Assembly: GCA_019058275.1 (NCBI GenBank)
Contig: JAHLVW010000062.1
Location: 128,001-192,000 of the forward strand
Source of the DNA: Candidatus Heimdallarchaeota archaeon
Lineage (GTDB): Archaea > Asgardarchaeota > Heimdallarchaeia > JABLTI01
DNA length: 64,000 nucleotides
Direction: 5' to 3'
Shown here: positions 13,228-54,224 of the stretch, one piece after another
Position numbering within the stretch: position 1 is the first letter of the stretch
How the letters are laid out: the number at the start of each line of letters is the position of its first letter
Notes under the pieces: model-generated
The model's input: only the letters and a program-made list of their open reading frames with translations
Told to the model about the DNA's origin: nothing
The model's database searches: none
Made by a program: the position numbers and the translations under genes

Positions 13228-15426
13228 ATGCTAACTTTTACTCGGAAGAGGTATAAGCTAATGACTTCTTTAATTCCTGATTATGAAATTTTTACTAAGA
13301 ATCTACCAGCTTTCTTTGTAAAAGAAGTAAAAGTAATGCGTTCAAGATTAAAGGAGAAAAATGATTTCATAGCTTATGCACAATCCATGGTTAAAGCAAT
13401 TATAAAATTCTGTTCAGAAGATTCTAACTATTCCAAATTAAAGCCTAAGATTTCTGATGAAGATTTCAATGAAATTATTAAAGCAGTTATAAGATTGCAT
13501 TTCTTTACTTATAATTCAGTAAATGCAAGATCATCAGACTTGAAAAGACTAAAAACTATTCTAAAAAGAAATAGTGATCCTATAATACAATCATGGTATG
13601 CTATTTTCTTTTTTGAAGAATGGCGAATAGAGAAACGATTTGATTATATTCAAAATCAATATAATAATTATCAGCAATTAGTAGCTGATGGGAAGGAATT
13701 TTCCTTTTTTGACAAATTGGATATACATCAGTTTCTGGGTTACTTAGCATTTCAAAAATATGATTTTCCAAAATTCAAAGAACTAACCCAAGTAATTTAC
13801 TCTATGTATGAATCAGAAGAAATGAGTGAGGATTTACTGCTATTAACGTATAAAACCATTTTCAGCAGCATTCTAGGTTATCACAATGCTCTTATTGGTG
13901 ATTTTAAAGATGCTGATTTCTTAATTGGAATTGCTGAAGCTTTTGCTGAAGAGCTAAATCTTCCATACTTAAAATCGCAAGTTAAAAGTAATTTAGGCAG
14001 TATTTACACATACAAAGGGAATCTTATCGAAGGAATAGAACAATTCAAAGAAGCACTAGTTTTAGCTCAGAAAGTGGGAAATGATTATAGTGCAGCTCGT
14101 ATAAAAGCAAATACAGGAGTAACTCAACTTTCATTAGGCTTTTATGATGAAGCATTAACATCTTTCTTAGAAGTTAAGAAATATGCTGAAGATGCTGTAG
14201 GTATTGCTCCTCTGAATTTCCATACAACAATTTTGTTGAATATAGCTGACACATACAAGGTCATGGGAAAATATCAAGAAGCAATAAATTTCTTAGATGA
14301 AGCTTTGAAAATGGAAGAGCAAAATGAAGCTATAACTGCAAATCTACTGTCCATTTACTACCATCAGATAGATGTGTTACTTGAAGCAAATAATTTATTA
14401 GAAGCTCGTAAAACACTTGAGAAACTCAAAAAAGCTATGGTGAAAATTGAAGCTACACCAATGGGCGCAGCATATAATTATATGCTGGGAATTTTGGAAT
14501 CAAAAGAAGCTAATTTTGCATCAGCTAAAAGAGTTTTATTAGAAGCAATAAGGCTATCAGAAGAACAAGCAGTAATGCATTTAGGTCCTATACGTCTTAA
14601 AGCATCCTTCCAGCTAACTAATGTTCTGTTAAACAGCTATAAGTTTACAAATAATACAGAAGAATTGCAACAAGCTCTATCACTATTAGAAAACTTGGTA
14701 AAAACCGCTGAAGAGAAAAATCTTATACCAATGCTTAGTGATTGTTTGATTGTACGCGCTTATTTAAATGAAATTCTTGATTTTAGAGAAGGAGCAATTA
14801 TGGATCTTGAAAAGGCTCAATCAATAGCAGAAGAATATAAACTACCTGTACATCTCACTCGAGCAAAGGAACGATTTGCATCACTTAGTAATAGTGATCC
14901 TAAGCTTTCAAGAACCGAGAAAGCAAATGGTTTGTTAGATTATTTAGGAGATACTCTTCCAGCCATCTTAACCTACAGAGTTGCTCATCGATCTAAAACA
15001 GATGAGAGTACATTGCTTGGTTTCCTTGTTATGACTGATATTGGTTTACCTGTATTTTCAAAGTATTATGATGAAGTTATCGAGACACAAGACATCTTAC
15101 TCTCAGGATTGATTTCAGCTGTTTCAGGATTTATACAGAATACTTTAACAAAAGATCAAAATGGTTCATTAAAAAGCATCAAACATGAAAATGTTACAAT
15201 TCTAATTGAGAGAATAAATCAGAAGCTTTCACTAGTTTTCTTTACAGAAAAGGATACCGCAGATTTACAGCTTAAACTTATACAATTAGCCAGAGAAATA
15301 GAAAATCAAGCAAAAGAGAAGTATCTTGACATAACATCTGATGAAGTATCACAAGGTGATCAAAGAAATATTCTAAAAGAAATCATTGAAAGTTCAATGA
15401 TACGAATTTTACCATCAATTAAATAG
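13228..15426 (+). CDS. TPR repeat protein with C-terminal longin-like domain
   Basis: TPR motifs (SNLGSIYTYKG, LNIADTYKVMG); C-terminal GLPVFSKYY...LLSGLISAVSGF...SIKHEN. Confidence 0.75.
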   Translation: MLTFTRKRYKLMTSLIPDYEIFTKNLPAFFVKEVKVMRSRLKEKNDFIAYAQSMVKAIIKFCSEDSNYSKLKPKISDEDFNEIIKAVIRLHFFTYNSVNARSSDLKRLKTILKRNSDPIIQSWYAIFFFEEWRIEKRFDYIQNQYNNYQQLVADGKEFSFFDKLDIHQFLGYLAFQKYDFPKFKELTQVIYSMYESEEMSEDLLLLTYKTIFSSILGYHNALIGDFKDADFLIGIAEAFAEELNLPYLKSQVKSNLGSIYTYKGNLIEGIEQFKEALVLAQKVGNDYSAARIKANTGVTQLSLGFYDEALTSFLEVKKYAEDAVGIAPLNFHTTILLNIADTYKVMGKYQEAINFLDEALKMEEQNEAITANLLSIYYHQIDVLLEANNLLEARKTLEKLKKAMVKIEATPMGAAYNYMLGILESKEANFASAKRVLLEAIRLSEEQAVMHLGPIRLKASFQLTNVLLNSYKFTNNTEELQQALSLLENLVKTAEEKNLIPMLSDCLIVRAYLNEILDFREGAIMDLEKAQSIAEEYKLPVHLTRAKERFASLSNSDPKLSRTEKANGLLDYLGDTLPAILTYRVAHRSKTDESTLLGFLVMTDIGLPVFSKYYDEVIETQDILLSGLISAVSGFIQNTLTKDQNGSLKSIKHENVTILIERINQKLSLVFFTEKDTADLQLKLIQLAREIENQAKEKYLDITSDEVSQGDQRNILKEIIESSMIRILPSIK

Positions 15427-40981: not shown

Positions 40982-42316
40982 TTAATTTGTTTCTATTTTG
41001 ATTTTTAGACCAAGTTCATTTAAATTCCTAAAGAATAGCTTCTCAACAGTTGATTCTTTAACAGTTCTACCAAAATTAATTACTAGTTTATCACCAAAAC
41101 TAACAACTGCACAACTAGAAGTAATGTTTGTACTTGGGGCTAATACCAATTCAAAGTTTTCAATTTCATCAGAAAATTCCTTTGGCATTGTCACCTTTCC
41201 CATGTTACTTAATTTTCCAGAAAATTGTTGTTCACCAAATCTATTATACAAGAATCCAGCAATTAATTGTTTTGCGAATAATGGTGCAGTCCTAATAATT
41301 GGGAATTGTTCACTACGGACATTCTGGGAAATGTGCTGATTAAGTTGTTTTTTACCAATTTCTTTTCGCATGGAATGATGCACTTGACTTAAGACTTCAT
41401 TGAAACTATGCCAACCTAATCTTGGATCAACTTCAGGTGCTATCATGAAAGTAAAATTCCTCATTGTTTTGGTAGGAAAGATTTTTCTTAAATTTACAGG
41501 AACAGCTATCCTTATTGGTTTCATATGGTTTTTTTGAATATCTGCTGGCAAACTAAATAAGATAGTTTGAAGTGAATCAAGATAAATAGTTGTTAATAAG
41601 TCAGTCATAGTGACTTTTTTCTCTCGAGATACTTTCAGTAGATCCGAAACAGACATTATTCCAGTCGTTACATGAAAGACTCTTTTTTTCTCGTGAGTAA
41701 AAGGTGGTTTGAAAGCAACACTTTTTGTCTTTGTGGAAGGATTCTCTTTTCGATAATTTTTCTTATATGCATAGTCATATTCAGAAGGGTCAGGTGTTTG
41801 GTTTATTCGAAAAATATCTTCCCAATCATTTGAATCTACACCTCGTAAGTGTAAATATTCAGCGACCAATGCTTTCAGAAAAGTTATTGCTCCAGTTCCA
41901 TCTGTTAAGCTATGATGAAATTCTACTGCTACTCTATTAAAATAAGCTCTTACTCTAAATGGAAAAACTCCTCGGTCATAAATTGGTAGTTTTTGACAGG
42001 GATATTTTGATTCTGCAACGATTTTAGGATCATTTGGGTTCTTCTCCCAATAATAATTGAACACACCAGTTCTAAGATGGACATCAAAATAGGGAAATCT
42101 AACCATAATACGATTCAAAGCAGTTTGAAGATCCTTAACATTAATTCGTTGTTTAAGTGTACAAGACATTCTGAAAATACTTGGGGACTTGTCTGAACTA
42201 AGCATACTAAAAATACTGGCAGCATTATCAAGTTTATACCAATTGAAAGGCCTCTTCATTCCATCAAAAAACTTAGGAGTAAAGTTTCTCGAATAGTCCT
42301 GTGCTACATCAGTCAT
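40982..42316 (-). CDS. Alcohol acetyltransferase / condensation-like acyltransferase
   Basis: WYKLDNAA, FHHSLTDGTG (HHxxxDG), VPVNLR, LSNMG. Confidence 0.8.
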   Translation of the reverse strand: MTDVAQDYSRNFTPKFFDGMKRPFNWYKLDNAASIFSMLSSDKSPSIFRMSCTLKQRINVKDLQTALNRIMVRFPYFDVHLRTGVFNYYWEKNPNDPKIVAESKYPCQKLPIYDRGVFPFRVRAYFNRVAVEFHHSLTDGTGAITFLKALVAEYLHLRGVDSNDWEDIFRINQTPDPSEYDYAYKKNYRKENPSTKTKSVAFKPPFTHEKKRVFHVTTGIMSVSDLLKVSREKKVTMTDLLTTIYLDSLQTILFSLPADIQKNHMKPIRIAVPVNLRKIFPTKTMRNFTFMIAPEVDPRLGWHSFNEVLSQVHHSMRKEIGKKQLNQHISQNVRSEQFPIIRTAPLFAKQLIAGFLYNRFGEQQFSGKLSNMGKVTMPKEFSDEIENFELVLAPSTNITSSCAVVSFGDKLVINFGRTVKESTVEKLFFRNLNELGLKIKIETN

Positions 42317-42413
42317 TGTTAAAAACTACTTGTAATCTAAGAACGACTGAACGTTAACATTGTCAAAAATAAACCTTTGCATTTCGAACATTTATGCACA
42401 TTAGCTGTAAATT

Positions 42414-42779
42414 TTATTCCAAAATTACTACATCATCTAATCGTTTGATCAACCATACACCTAATGGAAATCCAATTATTAGTAATGCACAAGCACTTGC
42501 TAAAATAATAACTGCTAATCCTAACCACCAACCAACTAGATAAAACCAAATTACTCCCAATATTAAGCGTTGACCTGTTTTCCAAGTTAATTCCGGATCA
42601 CGTTCTAATGAAAATACAAATTCTAATTTATCTAGTAACAAAAAACCTACAGGAGCAGTTATGGTTAATGCAACAAGTAGTATACCAATAATATACCAAA
42701 TGATAGAAACCCACCACCCAATTAGAATAGTCCAGAATATTCGAACTATCAAATTAGCCACAATATCTTCCAATTTCAA
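42414..42779 (-). CDS. YccF-domain membrane protein
   Basis: Duplicated IxWxxLxGWW...I.G.PLG hairpin repeats. Confidence 0.7.
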   Translation of the reverse strand: MKLEDIVANLIVRIFWTILIGWWVSIIWYIIGILLVALTITAPVGFLLLDKLEFVFSLERDPELTWKTGQRLILGVIWFYLVGWWLGLAVIILASACALLIIGFPLGVWLIKRLDDVVILE

Positions 42780-42843
42780 ACCCCAAAATAAGGATAGATT
42801 ACTATACTAATAATAATATTGGATAAAAGGAAAAGTTGGAGAT

Positions 42844-43236
42844 TTATTCTCCTGCTCTGCCATATATAAAACCCGGTGCACACCAACTACTTTTTTCATC
42901 CATTAACCAAGCGTTAAGTGAATCTTTTTCATAGACCACTACATCATTGACAATAAGCTTGATTTTCTCAATGCACCAATCATCATCTTTTCCAGTATAA
43001 GTTTTCTTACGAAAACAGAGGTATTGAAAATTTGAAGAATCAAAGTTCTCTGGTATATCTAATTCAAAAACATCTGTTTTTCCTTTTTCAAATTCATCAT
43101 ATTTTGGTATGTCTAATTGCCACTTATGACCACCAACATATAATTCCACAGGATTGTCGGTGTCACTTCTTCTTTCTTTACAAGTAGTTATTTCGATAAC
43201 TATTTTCTCAATTTTCTCATATTTTTGATCGGACAA
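42844..43236 (-). CDS. Stand-alone PLAT/LH2 domain protein
   Basis: IEITT...DTDNPVELYVGG, FEKGKTDVFEL, DWCIEKIKL, NAWL match the PLAT consensus (GTDa.V.i.l.G; FErG..D.F; W.l..v; WL). Confidence 0.7.
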   Translation of the reverse strand: MSDQKYEKIEKIVIEITTCKERRSDTDNPVELYVGGHKWQLDIPKYDEFEKGKTDVFELDIPENFDSSNFQYLCFRKKTYTGKDDDWCIEKIKLIVNDVVVYEKDSLNAWLMDEKSSWCAPGFIYGRAGE

Positions 43237-43356
43237 AATTACACCTGCATTTAATAGATGAAGTAAAGTAAAACCTTTTGCTATAAATTAGTATGCCATT
43301 AGATAAATTAGGGAACAATTCTCTGAGCTTTATAAAACCATCCTGGAGCAAGATGT

Positions 43357-43562
43357 GACGGTTTCTCTGATGGTAATGAATGCAATTATGGAACGGATCC
43401 AACAGATCCAAATGATTTTCCATTTACTGCTACCCCCACTCCAAACCAACAAACACTACAACGAAGGAAACTGGTTACAAAGGTGGATTAATCGCAGGTT
43501 TCTCCTTAATAACTATGATAACTTTTGTAGTATTAATAGCAGATCAACGAAGAAAAAGATAA
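43357..43562 (+). pseudogene. Orphan remnant of the Ca-repeat/PT-linker/TM anchor module
   Basis: DGFSDGNECNYGTDPTDPND.../frameshift/TNTTTKETGYKGGLIAGFSLITMITFVVLIADQRRKR*; no start codon. Confidence 0.8.
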
Positions 43563-43614
43563 ACAGATCAATGAAATACACTAGTATTTTTACTAGGCAG
43601 TTTCATTTTCTTTT

Positions 43615-44250
43615 TTATTTAGAACAACATTCCTCGATTTCTTTGACAATATCTGTATCTAAAACTAATGCTAGCCATCCAACATATTCAATCAAGCTAT
43701 CAATTAAATCCCAATTTAGTTTTCCTAGTTTCTCGAGTGTTTTTTTGTTAGCGTTTTCAAATATATCAATTATCAGTCTGTTATTTTCAATAGTTAATTT
43801 GTTGATTAATTCACCTACTGCAGAAGAAGTCAATTTTGTACCGAATTTCTGTTCAAGTAATTCTTGTACAATTTCATTGAATAATTGCATTTCTTTTTCC
43901 GGTAGCTTTTTCTTTTCATGTCCAAGATATCTTTTCAAGAAAATCTTTGCAGTTCTTATGTATATTGTTTCACTTAGTAGCTCATCTGCTCCTTTTGAGG
44001 TTATTCTTTTTCCTGCTTTTGCAACAAAACCGTTCTCAATAAGCTCTTTTAGATAACGATAGATTGACTTATCTGATTTACTAACTCCACTTTTCTCAAA
44101 ATCTTCTACTAATTCTTTTACTGTTCTTGGACCTTGTCTTAGGAATTTTATTATATACTTATAGTTTTCTTCGCTATAGACTAGATCTACTTGCTCTTGT
44201 GTTAGTATGTTTACTATTGTCTGTTTGTAGGTTATTACATCTTGACTCAT
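43615..44250 (-). CDS. Winged-helix (ArsR-like) transcriptional regulator, paralog R1
   Basis: IIKFLRQGPRTVKEL...KSDKSIYRYLKELIENGFV; helical C-domain ending in CC; GGTGA SD. Confidence 0.8.
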   Translation of the reverse strand: MSQDVITYKQTIVNILTQEQVDLVYSEENYKYIIKFLRQGPRTVKELVEDFEKSGVSKSDKSIYRYLKELIENGFVAKAGKRITSKGADELLSETIYIRTAKIFLKRYLGHEKKKLPEKEMQLFNEIVQELLEQKFGTKLTSSAVGELINKLTIENNRLIIDIFENANKKTLEKLGKLNWDLIDSLIEYVGWLALVLDTDIVKEIEECCSK

Positions 44251-44378
44251 TCCAATTCACCACTTTGTTTTTTTCTCATTCTTTGTTTCACTCATTCTCA
44301 ATATAATATATATCATTCTCATATATTTAAATATTGTTCTTGCATTGTAATATTTAATTCTAATACTATGATATATAT

Positions 44379-44420
44379 TTCTCATTTTTTGAGAAACACT
44401 TATATATAAGTATGAGAATA
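44379..44420 (+). promoter_or_regulatory. Operator/promoter P-A
   Basis: TTCTCA-N5-TGAGAA-acac-TTATATA-taagta-TGAGAATA. Confidence 0.75.
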
Positions 44421-44452
44421 GCATCTTAAAAAACAAGACGGAGAAATAAAAA

Positions 44453-44550
44453 ATGAGACAAAAACTCTATCACAAAAAACAATTAAAGATCAAATCAAAA
44501 AATACCATAATAAAGTTAGAATGGATTTTGCATTAGTTTATGGTCGTTAA
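44453..44550 (+). CDS. Small peptide A (about 32 aa; needs +1 nt in the A-run after codon 4)
   Basis: GGAG SD, ATG 44453; restoring one A gives MRQKTLSQKTIKDQIKKYHNKVRMDFALVYGR*; a hairpin overlaps the stop. Confidence 0.55.
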
Positions 44551-44785
44551 ATCGGTTTCGATTTTAACGATCAAACTATTTCTTTAATATTCGTTCTTGC
44601 TTTTTTTATGTACTAATTTTAGCAAGTTTTCTGATAGTCTTCATCAACATTTTGCCTAGAATTATTTAATTTCAGATATCAGTTACTAATTTGCCTATTG
44701 ATGTGGTACGGGTAATTGTTGAAGAATATCTTGAATTTGATATCATAAATGATTATATTCATTTTAACTTAGTGAATTTTTTTTC

Positions 44786-45451
44786 TTAAAAAAGCTTAAT
44801 TCTATCTCGAGGAATATTCACAGGTTTCATATGTGATGGAATCGCATAATCCCACTCAAAGTCTAGTATTTTGTTTAATGTTTTTAAATAAAGATCATAA
44901 TCATCATGGAATCTTTTGAACACAGGTTGGAGTCTGAAAAACATATGCATTATTGTATCCCCAAGGAAAAGTAATTTCTGTTTTTCAGCAAGTATGCAAA
45001 TGTGACCATAAGTATGCCCTGGTACATGAACAGCTCTTAATTGGAGTTCTTGGTCTATAATTTCATTATGTTCAACTAGTTTATTTGGTTTTATTGGGTC
45101 AATTTCTTGTTCTTCAATAAAGTATTTTGCTTCGTCTTTATGACAGATAATTTCAATACGTTCTAAAGGTGATTCGGGAGCACTTATTGTAGTTAGCTCA
45201 TAAATTAAAGTAGGTAATCCACCAGTATGATCTAAGTGTCTATGTGTAAAAACAATACGCTCAATCTTCTCTAGAGAGTCCCACCTCTTTCTTATCTTTT
45301 TTATAATTACAGAAATATCTTTCTCAAGTCCTGTATCAATTAAAGTTAGCATACCATTCTTCTTCTCTACAACAAAGATAGGAACTGAATAGATTCCTTT
45401 TCCAGAAACACTATACAAATCACTTGCGATTTCTTTTACCATGATAGTCAC
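44786..45451 (-). CDS. Metallo-beta-lactamase fold hydrolase
   Basis: LIDTG, THRHLDHTGG (HxHxDH), PGHTYGH, GD, PSH. Confidence 0.9.
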   Translation of the reverse strand: MTIMVKEIASDLYSVSGKGIYSVPIFVVEKKNGMLTLIDTGLEKDISVIIKKIRKRWDSLEKIERIVFTHRHLDHTGGLPTLIYELTTISAPESPLERIEIICHKDEAKYFIEEQEIDPIKPNKLVEHNEIIDQELQLRAVHVPGHTYGHICILAEKQKLLFLGDTIMHMFFRLQPVFKRFHDDYDLYLKTLNKILDFEWDYAIPSHMKPVNIPRDRIKLF

Positions 45452-45544
45452 CTAATTGATGTTAAAGGAATTCCTAACTCTTTTATTAATTTTCATAAAG
45501 AAATAAAGTATTCTAAAAAGGAAGAACCTCAAAAAATGAAAGAA

Positions 45545-45576
45545 GAAGAATGATCGGTCTTAAGCAATCATTCTTC
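45545..45576 (-). terminator. Hairpin terminator after the peptide-binding protein gene
   Basis: GAAGAATGAT-N12-ATCATTCTTC inverted repeat followed on the minus strand by a T-rich tract. Confidence 0.55.
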
Positions 45577-45599
45577 ATGATTGAAAGATAATTGATCTA

Positions 45600-47384
45600 C
45601 TATTTTCTCTTTTTTAAGAAGAAAATTTGAGTTGCACCTGCTAAAGCAAGAATGCTGATAACTGCGACTAGTCCTACACCAGTTGTTTCGGTTGTTGTTG
45701 TTAAATCAAAACCAGCAGCTTCTATTTGTTCTAAAGCAAGATTAATACTATATTCATATGGTTCTAATGATTCATCAAAACCGATTGATACTTTTGGCCA
45801 GTGAGTTACTCCTGGGTAACCCATACCATCAAGTATTTCATCGACAATGACTTGTCTTGGAACCAAATGACTAATAGCCTTTCGAATGTGTCTACCGGAT
45901 TCCTCACTTGCAATTGGACATAATTCACCTGTACCTATGTATGGATGAAGCATGTTTACACTCATTTCTTGGTTTCCAGGAGCAGCTACTAAGGAGTAAT
46001 CAATGCCGGAAACACCTTCTATGTCTGATCTTTGAACAAAGAATTCGGAATCAATGATATCAATTGCATCGCCTGCGAGAGCAGAAATGGCACCTTCTTT
46101 ATTGCTATAGAATTCAAAGTAAATATCTTCAAAGTTAGGATCTTCTCCATACCAATCTTTGAAGTATGGATTTCTCTCCAAATGAACTACTCCATTTGTA
46201 CCATCCCAATTCTCTAGGTAATAAGGACCGGTTCCCATGAGTTTATTAGGATCTGAAGTAGCCCAAGTAACAGCTTGAGTTGCGTGATCTTCTGGAGCAA
46301 TAGCACCCCAGATGTGTTCTGGAAGTAATTGAATTCCTAAATTACCATCTTGGAATACATAAGGTTGTAAGAAAGTTATGGTAAAATCATCATCATCAAT
46401 TTTCACAACAGAATCATTGTCCCAGTAAATAGTATTGAATGAATAGGTTGTATGACCTAAACTTTCAGTAGCACCTAATTGGTAAGTGTAGATAACATCA
46501 TCAGTTGTAACAGCTGTACCATCTGCCCATTTAGCATTGGCTACAAGCTTGCAGTTATATGTTAAACCATCAGAGCTACTAATATCTTCAATCAAACGTG
46601 GAGTAAAAGCTCGATCAGCTAAAACAGATCGTTCAACCAATGCACCATAGATTTGAGTCAACCATTGAGCATCATAAGTTGATTCAATTAAATAAGGATG
46701 AAAATCAACAAAGTCAGCAGGAACTGCGAAATGCAATTCAGTAGCACTACCTAATGACCAGTTCTCCATTGGTTGATAAGCAGAAGCCCATAAAAGTGGA
46801 TCCCAGCCATCTAAAACTGGATCATGAGCGTAGAGATTAACGTTGTAGACGATACAAATGCTTGGTTGATCATCATAAAGAATTTCTTGAATTTCTTCAC
46901 CATAATGCATACGATCTGCCCATGCAAAAGATTGTGAATAATTTCCAACAGCCCAATCAAATTCTTGATTGTTATATTGATAATAATTACCACCATATGG
47001 TGTAATTCCATCAGAAGTAAAAAGTCCTGTTGGATCAAAATCAAGTCCCCAACCATAACCTATGAAAAGAATGTCAAATCCACCCTCAGCATAACTTGGT
47101 ATTGGGTATGGACCTGGATGATTCCATGTCCTTGGACCGATTTGTGCCCATCCTGTGTGGTCAAAAACATCAACAGCAATACCTATTTTTGGTAATTGTT
47201 CTACCATCAAAGTTGACCATTGATTTCTTGCAGGATTGGTATTTGGCGCAAGAATACTTATTGAAAAGAATGGTCCTGGATTTGCTGCTTGAACAGGTGT
47301 TGAAATAACTGACATTAAACCTAAGCATGTCAATAAAGCTAACGGAAGGAACATTCTTTTTAAATCCTTCTTGATTAATTTCAT
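45600..47384 (-). CDS. ABC transporter substrate-binding protein, family 5 (oligopeptide/dipeptide, OppA/DppA-like), C-terminally anchored
   Basis: KWADGTAVTTDDVIYT, MGTGPYYL, LERNPY, IRKAISH; signal peptide, T-rich linker, TM + KKRK; no permease nearby. Confidence 0.85.
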   Translation of the reverse strand: MKLIKKDLKRMFLPLALLTCLGLMSVISTPVQAANPGPFFSISILAPNTNPARNQWSTLMVEQLPKIGIAVDVFDHTGWAQIGPRTWNHPGPYPIPSYAEGGFDILFIGYGWGLDFDPTGLFTSDGITPYGGNYYQYNNQEFDWAVGNYSQSFAWADRMHYGEEIQEILYDDQPSICIVYNVNLYAHDPVLDGWDPLLWASAYQPMENWSLGSATELHFAVPADFVDFHPYLIESTYDAQWLTQIYGALVERSVLADRAFTPRLIEDISSSDGLTYNCKLVANAKWADGTAVTTDDVIYTYQLGATESLGHTTYSFNTIYWDNDSVVKIDDDDFTITFLQPYVFQDGNLGIQLLPEHIWGAIAPEDHATQAVTWATSDPNKLMGTGPYYLENWDGTNGVVHLERNPYFKDWYGEDPNFEDIYFEFYSNKEGAISALAGDAIDIIDSEFFVQRSDIEGVSGIDYSLVAAPGNQEMSVNMLHPYIGTGELCPIASEESGRHIRKAISHLVPRQVIVDEILDGMGYPGVTHWPKVSIGFDESLEPYEYSINLALEQIEAAGFDLTTTTETTGVGLVAVISILALAGATQIFFLKKRK

Positions 47385-47454
47385 TTTTTATACCTCTTAA
47401 ATGTAGGGATCTCTATTTGGGGTAGATTTCCCTACCCTATCTATCATTAATAGG

Positions 47455-47485
47455 ATATATAGGTGTTCTCATAACTTTGAGAACA
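47455..47485 (-). promoter_or_regulatory. Operator/promoter of the peptide-binding protein
   Basis: Minus strand TGTTCTCA-aagtta-TGAGAACA-c-CTATATAT (8-bp perfect inverted repeat next to TATA); a degenerate second site TTCTAA-N6-TGAGAA at 47510-47527. Confidence 0.75.
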
Positions 47486-47731
47486 TGCTCTACTTTATTT
47501 GTCACTATTTTCTAAACTTGTTGAGAATTTAATAATTTTTTACTTCTCAAACAATTTTGAATATTAAACAAGAAGATTAATGATAGACGAAATAGTGTAG
47601 AAATAATTTTTTTCAATTTTGGTTAAGATTTTAACTAATTTCAATATGTAATGTTTAAAAAACTAGAACGCAATAAAGCTTATAGATAAAAAATAGTTTA
47701 CTAAAACAATTGATACTTTGGAGGATGTTAA

Positions 47732-48139
47732 ATGAACGCTTATGATCCAAGAGTTTCTCATTATAGTCGAACAGTTGCATTATTGCTCTGTTGGTTTCTA
47801 GGTGGTTATGGAGCTCATAGGTTTTACGTGGGTAAAGTAGTCTCTGGTTTCTTATGGTTATGCACCGGTGGTCTTTTTGGAATTGGTTGGATAATTGATC
47901 TAATTATGATTGCAACTGGCAGTTTTACTGATGATCATGGGAGAGTCGTCTATAGTTGGGATGGTGGAACACCTCAACCAGCACAAAGAACTGGTCCACC
48001 TCCACAACATGCACAACAACCAAGACCTATTCCTGAACCTGAGAAAAAGAGCACAACTGCTTTTTGTAGTACTTGTGGTGCAGTGGTTGATCGTAGTGAA
48101 ACATATTGCAAACATTGTGGTGCTCAAGTTTTGAATTAA
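47732..48139 (+). CDS. TM2 domain protein with C-terminal zinc ribbon
   Basis: [18 protein letters not shown]...[12 protein letters not shown]; CSTCG...CKHCG. Confidence 0.9.
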
Positions 48140-48273
48140 AACACCACAATTCATTTTTATTTTTTTTTGTGATATTTTTTCATAAGCATCCGATTTTTAC
48201 GCTCATAATTGGAATATAATATAAACACGAAAAAACGTTAGTATATTATGCTTAAAATTTTGAGGGTGGTATT

Positions 48274-49340
48274 TTGAAGTTGAAATTTATTGGAATATTT
48301 TTGATTATTTTTTCCTTAACAATTTCATATCCATGTATATCATCACATTCACAACCTGGAAATGAGCCATCTCTCATTAAACCAAAGGCTTTTGCTTTTA
48401 ATGCGAATCATTTAGTAGTGAACCAAGTTAGATTTAATATTATACCAGATTCAGCAATAATTAATGCTAAGAATACTTTACATATAGCATATGGTCATAC
48501 ATCACATGGAAGTCAAATTATAACAGGTATGAATGACTTGCCTGCCTACAAAGAAAGTTTAGGTGGAACCGAAGGGTTATATGATTGGAATGAAGGGGGA
48601 ATTGATGGAGCTTTAGATATAGATGATTACTTTGTTTCAGGTGATTTGGGTAATCCGGACATAAGTTCTTGGACGGAAAGAACTGAAGAATATCTCAACA
48701 ATTCAGCAAATTCAGATGTCAATGTAGTTATGTGGTCATGGTGTGGACAAGTATCTACAGCGACTGAAGCTGACATTGATTTATACCTTAGTCTTATGAC
48801 TGCTTTAGACTTTAGAATTATATCCAGATGTTTATTTTATTTATATGACTGAGCATACAGATGGAACTGGATTAGATGGTAATTTACATATTCGCAATAA
48901 TCAAATACGAGCTTATTGTGAAGCAAATTATAAGATTCTCTTTGACTTTGCTGATTTAGAATCATGATCCTGATGGCAATTATTTTGGTAATAGGAATTG
49001 TACTGATAATTGTGATTATGACGCAAATGATGATGATAATCCTTGGAATGATGGAGCTAATTGGGTTACTGAGTGGCAAAATGAAAATCCAGATGATTGG
49101 TATGATTGCTCTTCAGCTCACAGTCAACCTTTAAATGCAAATATGAAAGTCTATGCTACCTGGTGGCTATAGGCTAGTTTAACAGGTTGGTCTGATCCAT
49201 CTATCACTCCTACACCAAATCCCACTCCAACACCAACTGACGAAACACCAATGTTTGGTGGAGTTATTGGTTTAGCTATTTTTTCTTCATTTATTTTTAT
49301 AACAATTATACTAAGAAGAAATCTAAACAAAAACAAATAA
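48274..49340 (+). pseudogene. Secreted SGNH-hydrolase-like protein with PT linker and TM anchor, disrupted
   Basis: AYGHTSHGSQ, VMWSWCGQ; continues after frameshifts (RNNQIRAYC..LFDFADLES, CSSAHSQPLN..KVYATWWL*) to TPTPNPTPT...TM-RR. Confidence 0.6.
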
Positions 49341-49416
49341 AAATAGTATAATACGTAGTATCAAAGAACTCGTGAGAAAAAACACTCACTTGTTTCTTAT
49401 CTTTCTTTAATTGCTA

Positions 49417-50040
49417 TTATTGACAACACTGATTAATTTCATCTGGAATATCAATGTTAAGACTAATTGCTAACCAACTAACAAACTCTTTGACAAAATT
49501 AATTTTTTTCATATCTAAAACAGTAAATTCCTCTAAGGTTTCAGAGTCAGCATTTGAAATTAAATCAATAAAAACCTTATTTCTTTCTGCATTTAGTTTA
49601 TTGCCAAGCTTAGCCAATTTTATTGCAGATAATTCTTTGCCCTTAAAGAGATTTTTCAAAAGTGATAAAGCTACTATATATTCTGGACATGCAACACCTT
49701 CTGGACATTCTTTACAAGCTTTTGTTAGAAATACCTTAGCTGATCTCAAGTAAATTGTCTCACTAATAAGATCACTTTCATCTATTGATGTAATTCGCTT
49801 TCCTGCTTTTGCTACCAATTTTAATTTTAGAAGCTTATTTAAATAACGATAAATTGATTTTTCAGACTTCTCCATATCAAGCTTTTTGAAAGCTTGAACT
49901 AAATCACTAATAGACATTGGACTTTTTGATAAGAATTTCACTGTATATACTAAGTTTTGATCATTAAAACTTTCAAATTGCTCCTTGCTTAATATTAAAA
50001 CTGCCTTTTGTTTATATGTTATTGCTTCTTGTTTTAACAT
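49417..50040 (-). CDS. Winged-helix (ArsR-like) transcriptional regulator, paralog R2
   Basis: Shares ITYKQ, KS.KSIYRYL, VAKAGKRITS, SETIY.R.AK.FL, WLA and terminal CC with R1; GGAGG SD. Confidence 0.8.
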   Translation of the reverse strand: MLKQEAITYKQKAVLILSKEQFESFNDQNLVYTVKFLSKSPMSISDLVQAFKKLDMEKSEKSIYRYLNKLLKLKLVAKAGKRITSIDESDLISETIYLRSAKVFLTKACKECPEGVACPEYIVALSLLKNLFKGKELSAIKLAKLGNKLNAERNKVFIDLISNADSETLEEFTVLDMKKINFVKEFVSWLAISLNIDIPDEINQCCQ

Positions 50041-50131
50041 TATTAAACCTCCTTTTTTGTGTTTATTTTCAATACTATTAATATAATTCTTAGTTTTAAG
50101 TAATTATCGGTCTCAATAATATAAAAATCTT

Positions 50132-50173
50132 TTCTCAATTGTATGAGAAAACTTATATAAATTCATGAGAATA
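50132..50173 (+). promoter_or_regulatory. Operator/promoter P-B (bidirectional)
   Basis: TTCTCA-attgta-TGAGAA-aac-TTATATA-aattca-TGAGAATA; the minus strand also shows palindrome-TTTTATA-TGAGAC toward R2. Confidence 0.8.
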
Positions 50174-50209
50174 GTTTCCTAGAAGTTTGATAAAAAAGAG
50201 GTGACAAAA

Positions 50210-50296
50210 ATGCGACATGAAAAGAAAATCAAACGAATAATAAAGAAAGAACAAGAAAACGCAAGAATAAAATTTGCATTATATACAGACAGGTAA
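50210..50296 (+). CDS. Small peptide B (28 aa)
   Basis: GAGGTGA SD; MRHEKKIKRIIKKEQENARIKFALYTDR*; hairpin AGGTAAATA...TATTTGCCT over the stop. Confidence 0.75.
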   Translation: MRHEKKIKRIIKKEQENARIKFALYTDR

Positions 50297-50634
50297 ATAT
50301 TTGGTCTAGTACGACAATTATTTGCCTAAAAACTTACTAACCTGTTTTCTAATAAAAAAAGGCAAAAAATGATTCTTGCGAAAAACTAATTCTAAAAAAA
50401 TTCTTTGCTTAAGTGTATGATGGATCTATATAATTAGATAGTATTGTGTCTTATTTGAATCATGGTTCTTTCCAATCATCTTTTCTTTCTTTATTCAATG
50501 ATTCCTTATGCTTATCAGCTAATATGTTATACTTTTCAAAGAATATTTCTCATACGCGTTAAAAAGCTTTCTCAGTGCTTACAAATATTATTCTTATATG
50601 TTTAAATATATAGTCTCTTAATCATAAACACATA

Positions 50635-50677
50635 TTCTCACTATGATGAGAAATATTTATATACTAGTATGAGAATA
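50635..50677 (+). promoter_or_regulatory. Operator/promoter P-C
   Basis: TTCTCA-ctatga-TGAGAA-ata-TTTATATA-ctagta-TGAGAATA. Confidence 0.8.
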
Positions 50678-50713
50678 ATTTCCTAAGGATGTAGACAAAA
50701 TATGGGTGATTTA

Positions 50714-50815
50714 ATGAAGAAAAACAAGAAATCCATAACAAGTAAAGACATTCAAAAGGAATTAGAAAAAGTCAAGATACTCTTGACTATGTATTATTCA
50801 GATGGATTGATTTAG
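50714..50815 (+). CDS. Small peptide C (33 aa)
   Basis: GGGTGA SD; MKKNKKSITSKDIQKELEKVKILLTMYYSDGLI*. Confidence 0.6.
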   Translation: MKKNKKSITSKDIQKELEKVKILLTMYYSDGLI

Positions 50816-50839
50816 CAAGATTCCAGGAGGGGATCACTA

Positions 50840-50911
50840 ATGAATGATAGAAAGAAAATAAAAGATCAAATCAAGAAGGAATTAATCTCTTCCAAAGAGA
50901 GTAGACAGTAA
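50840..50911 (+). CDS. Small peptide D (23 aa)
   Basis: AGGAGG SD; MNDRKKIKDQIKKELISSKESRQ*; IKDQIKK identical to peptide A. Confidence 0.55.
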   Translation: MNDRKKIKDQIKKELISSKESRQ

Positions 50912-50946
50912 AGATCGGCATAAAAAGTAGGTAGGATGGTCCCATA

Positions 50947-51036
50947 TTGAATAAACAAAAGAAAGCTTACAAACAAAAAATCCAAACAGATAAGGAAAAA
51001 ACCAGAATGAGATTCGCCCTATTAACAGGCAAATAA
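50947..51036 (+). CDS. Small peptide E (29 aa)
   Basis: Purine-rich SD-like region, TTG start; MNKQKKAYKQKIQTDKEKTRMRFALLTGK*. Confidence 0.7.
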   Translation: MNKQKKAYKQKIQTDKEKTRMRFALLTGK

Positions 51037-51071
51037 GAAGCGTTCCATCCATGAGGAACGTTTCTTTTTTC
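51035..51071 (+). terminator. Hairpin + U-tract terminator closing the C-D-E transcript
   Basis: AAGAAGCGTTCC-N8-GGAACGTTTCTT then TTTT. Confidence 0.7.
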
Positions 51072-51194
51072 TTGATCTTATTTTAACTTTGTAGCTTATT
51101 GTTTTAGCTTTTTAGAATTAATGTCTCTGATTTTCAATAGTATAAATTTTTAAGGGAAATTATCTATAATACTATTAGAATAGATGATTTTTTT

Positions 51195-52175
51195 ATGAAC
51201 TGTAAATTCAAGATTTTTATGTTGAATATTATAGTGGTTCTAGTACTTATTTTTGCTAATTTCTCACATTCAGATGCAGCAACGAGATCATGGGATGTAG
51301 GTGATTTGTTTTTATTTAGCTATTCAAATTATTCCTATGCAAACACTACTAATACTGACTTTGTTGTGAGCGATATATTAGTAGTTTCAATTAAAGAAGA
51401 AGGTACTTATAATATTACTCGAGTAGATTTAAGTAATAATACCTATGCTTCTATTTTTACTGGAGTTGCCGGTTCTGGTTCCAATTTATTGAATTATTTT
51501 GGTTGGGAAGAATTCACTAATTATCAATTAGATCCAAATAGCTTTTTCACAATCACTTATGATTGGGATTATGGACATAATGAAATCGTACTAACGTATT
51601 TCAACTTTGGATTAATAGAAAATTGGCCATTTATTGAACCACAGGGGATAGAATTAATTTATTCATGAGCGAGATGTTTAACGAATCTGAAATTGTTGAC
51701 ACAGTTGTTGATCCTTATGAACCTTTAATTCATAATATTACTTTTGGAGATTTCATGAGTAGTGTTGAATCCTTTAGTATTATGAATAAGAATACACTAG
51801 CAGAAGCTGAACTGCAATTCAAGAACAACACTCGAAAATGGACTTTTGAATTTGATCTTTCCAATGTTCTAATGGATTCTGTATATAACATCACATTAAG
51901 GTACGATGAATATTTATCCTTATCAATCAATAATCTACAATTTTGAGTACGAATATACCGATGGTGGAGTACTTGATCGTGTGTTCAGAACAACTACAAT
52001 GGATATAACAATTGAAAATCGATTGTTGCATGTCTACTTTGAACGAAAAATGGTTTCTGGTGATTTCAAATCATTAGAAGCAAATTATCCTTATCTTATG
52101 GTTTTACCAGTGATTTTCCTGATTATATTAGTAATCAAACGGACTAAATCAAAGAATAATGGGAGGATAAAATAA
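51195..52175 (+). pseudogene. Surface-protein array member 1 (two frameshifts)
   Basis: Fragments 51195-51668, 51665-51946, 51906-52175 concatenate to a paralog of 52176-53141 (YDWDYGHN, DPYEP..HN.T, WTFEFDLSN, GGVL). Confidence 0.75.
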
Positions 52176-53141
52176 ATGAGTAAGAAAATCAAATTAGTAA
52201 TCAGTTCACAAATGATACTATTTATATTTATAATAAGTACTAGTCAATTCTCTGTTGCAATGGACCCCTCATGGGAAGAAGGAGTTTTTTATCCTTTTAA
52301 TTTTGTCTTTATATATAAGCACCATCAGCATGATATGAAAAATGATATTTTTGATGAATATGAAATCGAAAACAAAGATGAATATGTTTTTAATATAACT
52401 TATATTGATAACTCAATGCAATGGTTTCATACTATTATCTTTGATTCTCATGGCACTAGTTCTGTGTGGCTTAACTATAACGTCGATGATTTTGCTGATA
52501 ATGTACTAACAATCAGTAATATGTTTGATGTAGATTATGAATGGGATTTTGAACATAATCAAACAGTTTTAACAGACTTTGATTTTCACTTTTTTCCATT
52601 ATATTTCATTGATCCAAATTGGACGACCTATAATAGTCGCTTTGCTGATGTTTTCAATGGCTCTGAAATCGTTGCTACTGTTGCAGATCCTTATGAACCA
52701 ATCACTCATAATTTTACTTTACAAGACGTTTTATCTTTAGCATCTGATTACTCAATCATGGGTCAAAATGATTTAGCGTTAGCAAAAGAGAAGTTTACTG
52801 ACAATAATATTAATTGGACATTTTATTTTGACTTCTCAAACGCTATTAAGGATAATGTCTTCAATACTTCTTTAGGTTTTGATAGTTACGTTCCATATGA
52901 AACATATACAATTGACTTAGGATTTGACTACTCCCCTGGAGGTATTCTTGACCAATTCCGATATAATTTTGTGTACGAAATTATAAAAGATGAAGTTTTT
53001 AGACATTATGAAGTTGTAGAAGAAGCAAATACTGGAGGATTTCCAACAGTAGAAACACCTGGCTTAACGTATTTATTGGCAATTCCTGCAATATTCACAA
53101 TAGTGTTAGTAGTAAAATACACAAAAAAGAGGAAGATGTAA
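52176..53141 (+). CDS. Acidic secreted surface protein, array member 2
   Basis: Signal peptide, DYEWD..N.TV...FDF, IDP.W, C-terminal TPG-TM-KKRK sorting-like tail. Confidence 0.8.
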   Translation: MSKKIKLVISSQMILFIFIISTSQFSVAMDPSWEEGVFYPFNFVFIYKHHQHDMKNDIFDEYEIENKDEYVFNITYIDNSMQWFHTIIFDSHGTSSVWLNYNVDDFADNVLTISNMFDVDYEWDFEHNQTVLTDFDFHFFPLYFIDPNWTTYNSRFADVFNGSEIVATVADPYEPITHNFTLQDVLSLASDYSIMGQNDLALAKEKFTDNNINWTFYFDFSNAIKDNVFNTSLGFDSYVPYETYTIDLGFDYSPGGILDQFRYNFVYEIIKDEVFRHYEVVEEANTGGFPTVETPGLTYLLAIPAIFTIVLVVKYTKKRKM

Positions 53142-53228
53142 TAATCTTCTTTTCTTTTTATTTTTTACTTCAACTTTTTATTAGGAAATTCTTATATGAA
53201 AACATTTGCCAGTCTATTTAGTAATGAG

Positions 53229-54224
53229 ATGAAACTCATGAGCCAAAAAAAGAGTATTTTGATGTTGACTAATTTTATTATTATAGCTCTTTTAGTAAGT
53301 AATGCAATAACAAGTATTGCTATTGAAAGAGAGTACAATGCAGGTAATATCTTTACATGGGGTTTCAATATAGAAGAAGTAATGACTAACACATACTTAG
53401 ATCTTGATCTAGTCTATATTAATGATGAAACTGACAGTGGTGATATCCAGCTAAATATCACTGCCATAGATACACTAACAAAAAACTATGAGGGTATCTG
53501 GTCAGATGATTCTGGAAGTGGTAGTCCTGGAACATATGATTATAGTTTGGATGATTTGGGAGATCGTTTTGAGACAGTGGACCTCTTTGATATTGATTGG
53601 GAATGGGACTATCTAAACAATGTTACTGTTCCAGGTGATTTTGATTTCATGCTTAATACACCATATCTAATGTGGCAAGTTTTTGATCATTCATATCTTA
53701 TCGATCCCAAATGGGGAGATATAAATGATGCAATATTTGCAGGATTCAATCTTACCTATCAAGTAGAGACCTTTTACAATCCATACAATGCAAATATCAC
53801 CTACAATTATACACTAGCTGATGTTTTTGATAATATTTCTTTCAAAATCATGGGTAAAGATACATTAGCTGATGCAGAAGCAAAATTCACTGATACAATT
53901 TACAAATGGAACTTTGTATTTGACTTGTCTGGATTCTTAATGGAAGAATACTGGAATGGTACTACAGACATTTACCAAGCCTATGAAACATATATTGTAA
54001 GTTTATCCCTCGAGTATTCTGAGGGGGGTGTATTACAAGAATTAGAACACACTACAACGACTCTAATAACAATTGATGGAATTCAAGAGGAAGTAAATTA
54101 TAAATTTAAGCTTGCTTTAGGTGGAATGAAATCAGCAACTGTTAATTTTGCAACAATTTCAGCAGTAATTGGTTTGTTTACAATAAGCATTGTAATAGTT
54201 GTAATCAGAAGAAGAAAGAGATAA
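53229..54224 (+). CDS. Acidic secreted surface protein, array member 3
   Basis: Paralog; start probably 53229/53238 because the ATG at 53196 lies in the promoter motif GGAAATTCTTATATGA. Confidence 0.8.
   Translation: MKLMSQKKSILMLTNFIIIALLVSNAITSIAIEREYNAGNIFTWGFNIEEVMTNTYLDLDLVYINDETDSGDIQLNITAIDTLTKNYEGIWSDDSGSGSPGTYDYSLDDLGDRFETVDLFDIDWEWDYLNNVTVPGDFDFMLNTPYLMWQVFDHSYLIDPKWGDINDAIFAGFNLTYQVETFYNPYNANITYNYTLADVFDNISFKIMGKDTLADAEAKFTDTIYKWNFVFDLSGFLMEEYWNGTTDIYQAYETYIVSLSLEYSEGGVLQELEHTTTTLITIDGIQEEVNYKFKLALGGMKSATVNFATISAVIGLFTISIVIVVIRRRKR

Follow-up and report, generated by a model that had tools for sequence, protein, structure and literature searches.

In the Rgg/SHP and RRNPP systems of Firmicutes, a receptor that combines an XRE-type helix-turn-helix (HTH) with a tetratricopeptide repeat (TPR) domain is encoded next to the gene for a short peptide, often divergently, and the peptide is taken up through an Opp-type transporter. 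The part of an RRNPP pro-peptide that differs between paralogs lies at its extreme C terminus. The export of SHP peptides in Rgg/SHP systems has been treated elsewhere (PMC7564271). The locus described here occupies positions 43,615 to 51,071 of a 64,000-nucleotide stretch (the window) of contig JAHLVW010000062.1 from a Candidatus Heimdallarchaeota archaeon. It holds two winged helix-turn-helix (wHTH) regulators, R1 and R2, whose wider family is called R below, together with five micropeptide genes and a family-5 solute-binding protein. A sequence-only reading of the locus had suggested a quorum-sensing circuit analogous to Rgg/SHP, naming intracellular co-repressors or anti-repressors as the alternative role of the peptides. 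The regulatory layer, with R as an operator-binding autorepressor and with the micropeptides and the binding protein as its conserved targets, is very probable. The fuller reading, a lineage-specific repressor regulon built of duplicated regulator–micropeptide modules with peptide feedback inside the cell, is possible and is offered tentatively.

Two other kinds of repressor are relevant as background. In the PadR family, the C-terminal domain dimerises and helps to bind the ligand; these proteins sit on palindromes that overlap promoters, repress their own genes and are released by ligands, which are phenolic acids and drugs, not peptides. TrmB-type regulators are archaeal wHTH repressors that bind over the TFB-recognition element (BRE) and TATA box of a solute-binding-protein gene, for which the transported solute is the inducer. 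To our knowledge, no modular arrangement of regulators and micropeptides has been described in Archaea, and a literature search on Asgard and archaeal peptide signalling found nothing comparable, nor did one on the genome assembly bring up any relevant paper. Each part of the present locus is of a known kind: the repressor has a wHTH, its operator is palindromic and the binding protein belongs to family 5. The regulators form an unnamed family, and the micropeptides a new one.

The palindrome TTCTCA-N5/6-TGAGAA stands at 44379, 47466, 50132 and 50635, before the TATA boxes of the three micropeptide promoters and of the binding-protein gene, just as the sequence-only reading had it. A search of the window with the pattern TTCTCA-N4-7-TGAGAA found four palindromes, all of them within the 43,615–51,071 stretch, against 0.08 expected, and none of 100 shuffles reached four. 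The half-site hexamer has a density of 20 per kb in the four control regions, about 22 times that of the rest of the window (0.9 per kb). Across the genome there are 16 palindromes versus 0 for the reversed control. Composites of operator and TATA box, defined by a spacer of 5–6 nucleotides (nt), at most one mismatch and a TATA-like box no more than 16 nt away, number 19 (12 exact) versus 2–3 (0 exact) for two control patterns. Comparisons were made among 83 genomes of the class: the genome holding the window (G000, 92.8% complete), 10 others of its genus and 72 of other genera. Regulator and palindrome occur together within the genus, where G074, which is only 82% complete, has neither an R match nor a palindrome and the other genomes have 3–9 R matches and 6–18 palindromes.

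The spacing of these elements is fixed. In the window, 3–4 nt separate each of the four palindromes from the TATA box that follows it, and at the three peptide promoters the TATA box is in turn followed, after 5–6 nt, by ATGAGAATA, a TGAGAAT half-site. About 28 peptide promoters of the genus share one layout: an upstream half-site, the palindrome, 3–4 nt, TTATATA, 5–6 nt and TGAGAAT. Between R2 and peptide 2, a single palindrome is flanked by TATA boxes on both sides and so serves both divergent promoters. By its position, the palindromic operator thus appears to overlap the core promoter, that of the regulator included, as in a PH1932/PadR-type arrangement. Archaeal promoters have the BRE immediately before the TATA box and start transcription some 25 nt after it. 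Because the palindrome ends 3–4 nt before the TATA box and a half-site follows, bound R would cover the BRE and the stretch from the TATA box to the start. By these promoter rules, R would act as a repressor by blocking TBP, TFB and RNA polymerase, and it would repress itself as well, since the two divergent promoters share one palindrome.

In G000, the operator also precedes genes for secreted LVIVD, PfpI-like and beta-lactamase-fold proteins, for an 82-amino-acid (aa) protein and for a 37-aa peptide on contig C84. G081 and G076 have PfpI-like orthologs without it, and the beta-lactamase-fold gene is without orthologs in the genus. These extra targets appear not to be conserved and would be either accessory or chance occurrences. 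At the C84 site (14400–14616; L074), an exact operator, a TATA box and a half-site precede the 37-aa open reading frame (ORF), and no R gene lies on that contig. The first half of this ORF is extremely rich in Arg and Lys and its tail is aromatic (...GYYKWDVVYY...), making it a further micropeptide type under the same operator. On contig C54 (99740–100000; L070 2740–3000), an operator on one side and a DrrA-like ATP-binding cassette (ABC) ATPase and permease on the other flank a GC-richer stretch that contains a 28-aa ORF and might be a structured RNA or a further small gene. In a single case, on C78, a radical-SAM gene shares its intergenic region with one palindrome.

R1 and R2 are paralogs, as the sequence-only reading held, with 41% identity. 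The ArsR-type Pfam HTH_5 model matches R1 at 25.5 bits (E 1e-5), above its 22-bit cut-off, and R2 at 19.4 bits, below it. Matches to PadR (E 0.007; 16.8 bits against a cut-off of 27) and TrmB (E 0.0018) also fall below cut-off. Pfam thus gave weak wHTH families only for the regulators and no TPR domain, and NCBIfam and PADLOC gave R1 and R2 weak wHTH similarity only, for example to the C terminus of Csa3. The AlphaFold2 (AF2) model of R1, with a mean predicted local distance difference test score (pLDDT) of 79, has a wHTH followed by 4–5 helices, so that the protein is predicted to join a wHTH to a helical C-terminal domain in the ArsR/PadR manner. Its best structural match is PH1932 (1uly/2cwe; Foldseek E 4e-7 over about 200 columns), followed by PadR, LmrR and VanR, and PH1932 also leads the sequence matches to solved structures (profile E 0.012). 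A large protein collection holds 77 homologs of R1, all of them unnamed or "hypothetical", and the named organisms are almost all Heimdallarchaeota or Asgard. Of the 83 genomes of the class, 67 have R-family genes, frequently more than one.

The two halves of the regulators have evolved very differently. Among nine G000 paralogs, mean identity is 46% in the wHTH and 20% in the helical C-terminal domain of about 100 residues. The recognition helix SDKSIYRYL and the wing AKAGKRITS are nearly unchanged in R1, R2, R_C1 and both C96 paralogs, and they vary in four more distant G000 paralogs. The near-identical helix and wing beside a diverged C-terminal domain suggest that these five proteins share a DNA specificity and probably differ in the input they sense. 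At C96 (48637–49920) and its orthologous loci (L010, L035, L037, L038), the R genes facing the A/B/C micropeptide cassette form a tandem pair separated by 15–25 nt, which suggests a two-regulator operon and, possibly, heterodimers.

The five small ORFs listed by the sequence-only reading are present, and three of them end in the motif R[MI]xFALxx[GD][RK] that it described (the FAL family), with the qualification that the tail of peptide 1 is out of frame in this assembly. Translation from the ATG at 44453, which follows a Shine–Dalgarno sequence, stops at 44536, and the FAL tail (...RMDFALVYGR) lies in the -1 frame and ends at 44550. A run of six A residues at 44474–44479 is a run of seven in assembly GCA_019058195.1, the sole indel over 8.1 kb at 99.9% identity, where the intact peptide 1 has 32 aa (P0081). 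The frame is likewise unbroken in a peptide-1 paralog on contig C1 and in the ortholog of G076, the closest relative genome. The frameshift is taken as an assembly error in a homopolymer or as a polymorphism between strains, and not as part of the system, because the A7 assembly has the intact gene and no other indel. Other short ORFs and split genes of this assembly may carry errors of the same kind.

Several observations bear on whether the small ORFs are genes. Differences across orthologs at codon positions 1/2/3 number 71/50/170 for peptide A and 36/28/70 for peptide 2, the two ortholog sets on which this test rests, and the GTG start of peptide 2 at 50201 is kept in its orthologs. A profile of the FAL family finds 1–14 short open frames in 10 of 10 other genus genomes and 9 in G000, and nothing convincing in the 72 genomes of other genera. 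By these comparisons, the micropeptides are translated small proteins, and the FAL family is genus-specific. The opposite case, chance ORFs or non-coding RNA in regulated intergenic DNA, would fit their tiny size, the missing annotation, the AT-rich DNA and the one frameshift. It is scarcely credible and already contradicted by the third-position bias with its synonymous changes, by the frames kept open throughout the genus and by the absence of the frameshift from the near-identical assembly. In addition, an Rfam search of positions 42000–53000, with E up to 1, matched no family. A collection of 5.8 billion predicted proteins contains only 15 FAL members, none of them named, and gene callers mostly miss proteins as short as these, at about 30 residues.

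Over its whole length, a FAL peptide has a basic start, IKxQIKK, ARMK[FY] and a variable tail, roughly six residues long, whose end is G-[RKA]. Conservation spans the entire peptide and reaches beyond the tail alone; between paralogs, the last six or so residues are the most variable and the middle IKxQIKK and ARMK parts are held in common. The starts are basic, as the sequence-only reading said of their Lys-rich N termini, but the C termini it called hydrophobic are only mildly so, the last 11 residues scoring -1.5 to +0.9 on the Kyte-Doolittle scale. The grand average of hydropathy runs from -0.4 to -1.7 and the net charge from +3 to +12. The best 15-aa Kyte-Doolittle window does not exceed 0.71, and no stretch free of charged and amide residues is longer than 8. 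Hydropathy windows revealed no signal-peptide-like or membrane-inserting segment in the peptides. A search of the ESM Atlas for look-alikes of two of the peptides gave no usable match. Readings of the peptides as having HbYX-like endings or as being thymosin/WH2-like were dropped, as they fit few members only.

The sequence-only reading had proposed looking for conserved divergent synteny across genomes, and it is found throughout the genus. All 26 of 26 R genes in five clades, from ten species, stand head-to-head with micropeptide genes, and each clade has one peptide type. These types are the peptide-1 type, often a two-peptide operon; the peptide-2 type; the A/B/C cassette, which is shared by two clades; and a three-peptide type in G073, G077 and G079. 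On a maximum-likelihood tree of the regulators, the peptide labels need 6 changes, whereas shuffled labels need 24 on average. R genes of the remaining clades, the second member of the tandem R pairs among them, have no peptide. At the cassette of the window, where the third peptide promoter drives the three small ORFs A, B and C, the preceding R gene of G072, G075 and G078 has been lost and the operator kept.

Regulator and micropeptide are also found apart. In another family of the class (f6), most R homologs (loci L013–L021, L023, L027, L029 and L030) are divergent from a gene for a conserved protein of about 310 aa that starts MKVxYRxWEP. The palindrome is present at most of these loci, with no exact match at L016, L023, L029 and L030, and L021 faces a different gene. 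The 310-aa partner matches no Pfam family and was not found in G000. The expectation of the sequence-only reading, that R homologs elsewhere would keep both the FAL ORFs and the palindrome, therefore stands for the operator in most f6 loci and fails for the peptides, whose place is taken by the 310-aa gene. In turn, FAL peptides at C69 and C22 have no adjacent R gene and lie under another palindrome, GTCACAACTTGTGAC. C69, C22 and C102 share TTGAGTCT and AAGTGAATC boxes and a TATA box; the printed stretch of C102 begins inside the GTCACAACTTGTGAC palindrome, with the right arm visible. The FAL peptides at C107 likewise have no adjacent R, and a GTCACAACTTGTGAC-type palindrome was not seen there. 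The C69 copies have a GTPase-domain gene on one side and an unidentified 164-aa gene on the other. From their shared boxes, the GTCACAACTTGTGAC loci look like a second regulon for the same peptide family.

The membership of an oligopeptide-type binding protein in the regulon, as claimed by the sequence-only reading, is borne out by an operator conserved in six species. The protein matches SBP_bac_5 (PF00496; E 6e-40), and its sequence reads as a signal-like N terminus and a C-terminal anchor. Orthologs with 64–85% identity lie between R genes in G072, G075, G076, G078 and G081 and adjoin R in G073 and G079. In the six species, the palindrome is 96–99 nt before the start codon, its arms conserved and its spacer varying freely. 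Binding-protein paralogs outside this synteny have no palindrome, and the G074 ortholog has no operator. The outward-facing half-site pair of this intergenic region is also present in G076. By this comparison, the binding protein is the only target other than peptides and R that has a conserved operator and synteny, in six species. A hairpin in its 5' leader (47385–47450, minus strand) has a predicted energy of -14.4 kcal/mol and a z-score of only -1.4; it is kept in G076, and a different hairpin takes the same place in G072, G075 and G078.

No BPD_transp_1 permease lies near the locus on the contig, where the neighbours of the binding-protein gene are a metallo-beta-lactamase-fold (MBL) hydrolase and a TM2 protein. 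G000 has about 14 SBP_bac_5 genes versus about 5–6 permease pairs, and orphan binding proteins could therefore share a permease. The binding protein falls below every NCBIfam cut-off and is scored alike by oligopeptide, nickel and opine models, so that its sequence does not tell the ligand class; the MBL hydrolase is also below every NCBIfam cut-off. No C39 peptidase (PF03412) was found in G000, at its 92.8% completeness, with control genomes giving matches. The conserved neighbourhood contains no transporter or protease and no modifying enzyme for ribosomally synthesised and post-translationally modified peptides (RiPPs) adjoining the putative precursors.

Under intracellular feedback, each R paralog would be tuned through its diverged C-terminal domain, and the neighbouring micropeptide would be its signal inside the cell, as a small helical protein partner that acts as anti-repressor or co-repressor. 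These two are the weakest steps of the proposed mechanism. Each module would then be a feedback loop, with the binding protein as a co-regulated output. Feedback inside the cell is slightly favoured because each of five clades that share one DNA specificity has retained its own peptide while only the sensor domain diverges, and because the peptides resemble soluble helical partners rather than exported pro-peptides. A complex prediction for an R2 dimer with peptide 2, made with the proteins as alignments and without controls, scored 0.00 and weighs neither way. Several findings count against feedback of this kind. The f6 homologs, with the same palindrome and a non-peptide partner, imply that the R family is not intrinsically a peptide receptor, and the FAL peptides under GTCACAACTTGTGAC imply a role of the peptide family that does not need R. 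The conserved co-regulation of a peptide-type binding protein is unexplained by a purely intracellular loop, and the pairs might stay together only because a bidirectional promoter built on one operator does not split easily. Almost as likely as intracellular feedback, and somewhat unlikely in itself, is that the micropeptides are outputs only. R proteins would then be local repressors that respond to another ligand, for example a solute delivered by way of the binding protein, and the cationic peptides would be products with no feedback and with a cellular or envelope target of their own. This is the default logic for divergent regulator–target pairs, and it accommodates the FAL members that sit under a second operator with no R nearby, the f6 homologs that regulate a non-peptide gene through the same palindrome and the 1–14 dispersed family copies per genome. 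The LVIVD, PfpI-like, beta-lactamase-fold and 82-aa targets in G000 also speak for it, with the reservation that they are not conserved. It leaves unexplained why five R clades of the same specificity have each kept their own peptide through the history of the genus and why the C-terminal domain alone has diverged.

The quorum-sensing proposal of the sequence-only reading would have the pro-peptides exported and cut, the tail imported by way of the binding protein and then read by the cognate R, in a manner like Rgg/SHP and not homologous to it. This is distinctly unlikely. Clade-specific pairs of R and peptide speak for it, the most variable part is the last six or so residues, as in RRNPP pro-peptides, and it is the only model that gives a role to a binding protein conserved in operator and synteny, which as an orphan could share a permease. 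Set against this, the peptides have no signal peptide or export segment and are among the most hydrophilic possible, and conservation takes in the whole peptide and not the tail alone. No C39 exporter was found in the genome, the conserved neighbourhood has no transporter or protease and the receptor has no TPR domain. The binding protein fits oligopeptide, nickel and opine models alike, each below cut-off, and the literature search found no archaeal peptide signalling. The intracellular co-repressor or anti-repressor that the sequence-only reading gave as its alternative fits at least as well as quorum sensing. More doubtful still is that these archaeal modules are the first case of peptide-based cell–cell signalling, with release by some route, trimming, capture of the tail by the binding protein and PH1932/PadR-like receptors; if true, the closest prokaryotic relatives of eukaryotes would have arrived at RRNPP logic by convergence. 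Finally, the peptides might be RiPP precursors or leaderless cationic antimicrobial peptides, archaeocin-like, that R keeps silent. Short cationic peptides in tandem with conserved C-terminal motifs, tight repression through several operator sites and the C78 radical-SAM gene beside a palindrome would suit such a role. It is nevertheless very improbable, as no modifying enzyme, immunity gene or exporter adjoins any locus examined, the peptides are far poorer in hydrophobic residues than membrane-active ones and the radical-SAM site is a single case.

The features of the locus, together with the R-independent FAL genes elsewhere in the genome, are collected in the table.

Table. Features of the regulator–micropeptide locus (window coordinates) and FAL genes on other contigs.
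Feature	Coordinates	Strand	Details
R1	43615..44250	-	211-aa wHTH regulator; ORF, HTH_5, AF2 model, PDB matches
Three TTCTCA half-sites	44273..44321		At 44273, 44295 and 44316 (spacing 22 + 21 bp); R1 side of the intergenic region
Peptide-1 promoter module	44379..44420	+	Palindrome 44379-44395, TATA 44400-44409, half-site ATGAGAATA 44412-44420
Peptide 1	44453..44550	+	FAL family; frameshifted in this assembly
Terminator-like hairpin and T-tract	44536..44610	+	3' of peptide 1; -14.5 kcal/mol, z -3.4
MBL-fold hydrolase	44786..45451	-	Own transcription unit; conserved neighbour of the binding protein; Lactamase_B E 1e-21
Family-5 solute-binding protein	45600..47384	-	Signal peptide, C-terminal membrane anchor; permease not adjacent
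Binding-protein promoter	47454..47483	-	Palindrome 47466-47483, then minus-strand TATA at about 47454-47462
Outward-facing half-site pair	47522..47549		TGAGAA 47522, TTCTCA 47544; between binding-protein and TM2 genes
R2	49417..50040	-	207-aa R1 paralog
Shared R2/peptide-2 operator	50132..50173		Palindrome 50132-50149, TATA on either side, half-site 50165-50173
Peptide 2	50201..50296	+	FAL family; 31 aa from GTG 50201 or 28 aa from ATG 50210
Cassette promoter	50635..50677	+	Palindrome 50635-50652, TATA 50656-50663, half-site 50669-50677
Peptide A	50702..50815	+	Tail ...YSDGLI; 37 aa, or 33 aa from ATG 50714
Peptide B	50840..50911	+	23 aa, IKKEL type
Peptide C	50947..51036	+	FAL family; 29 aa, TTG start
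Cassette-ending GC-rich hairpin and U-tract	51031..51075	+	-17 kcal/mol, z -5.2; 0/200 shuffles equally stable
R-independent FAL genes	C69:4300-4800 (L076), C22:71330-71650, C102:1343-1700, C107:9858-10160		Often tandem

Between R1 and R2 lie the genes for the MBL-fold hydrolase, the family-5 binding protein, a TM2/zinc-ribbon protein and a secreted protein. The last of these, a secreted 192-aa ORF, seems to continue in other frames across 48274–49340, with a part at 48845–48967, a Pro/Thr-rich linker and a membrane anchor at 49251–49340; frameshifts or errors of assembly may have broken up a gene of about 350 aa here. Directly 3' of the micropeptide cassette, every species has two or three paralogs of an anchored surface protein that matches no Pfam family (51195–54224 in the window). 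The first copy in the window is spread over three overlapping ORFs (51195–51668, 51665–51946 and 51906–52175), and its G076 ortholog is unbroken. The AF2 model of the surface protein (pLDDT 85) is a large open beta-sheet that weakly resembles the lipid-binding folds of lipovitellin, MTP, ApoB and LolA (TM-score 0.2–0.3).

Gene regulation and small proteins are little known in Asgard archaea, and this locus offers a complete, testable cis-unit of operator, BRE/TATA and half-site spacing. If the micropeptides are ligands of the neighbouring regulators, they would represent a new receptor–peptide pairing, and if they act outside the cell, they would be the first peptide signal from an archaeon. 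Recombinant proteins together with synthetic peptides suffice to check every step, and culture of the organism is not needed.

Comparison with known systems places the locus among several of them. Of the double-glycine-leader export systems, the C39 peptidase–ABC exporter was not found here, and of the family-5 (Opp/Dpp/Nik) ABC systems, SBP_bac_5 and a secretion signal are present and a co-encoded permease and ATPase are not. The logic of TrmB-type regulation would fit the binding-protein arm of the regulon, but R belongs to another family and has no sugar-binding domain, and we know of no micropeptide targets of TrmB. PadR-family proteins (B. subtilis PadR, LmrR, VanR) share with R the wHTH and the helical C-terminal domain, whereas the Pfam PadR score stays below cut-off. 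PH1932, the ArsR-homologue DNA-binding protein of Pyrococcus horikoshii (PDB 1ULY, 2CWE), is likewise archaeal, has about 190–210 aa and combines an N-terminal wHTH with a helical C-terminal domain; it differs from R1 in having only 20% identity and a TM-score of 0.41–0.46. A literature search on PH1932 found two passing mentions only, and as far as we know it has no link to peptides or to this operator. With the RRNPP systems there is no homology, and analogy at most. The receptor here has a wHTH and a short helical C-terminal domain instead of an XRE-type HTH and TPR, the peptides are strongly hydrophilic and carry no export segment, no counterpart of PptAB, Eep or C39 is linked to the locus, the binding-protein gene itself carries the operator and the host is an archaeon. 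What the two have in common is the arrangement: a peptide gene adjoins the regulator gene, several paralogous pairs occur per genome, the paralog-specific part of the peptide is C-terminal and a binding protein, co-regulated and of family 5 here and of Opp type in the RRNPP loop, accompanies the pair.

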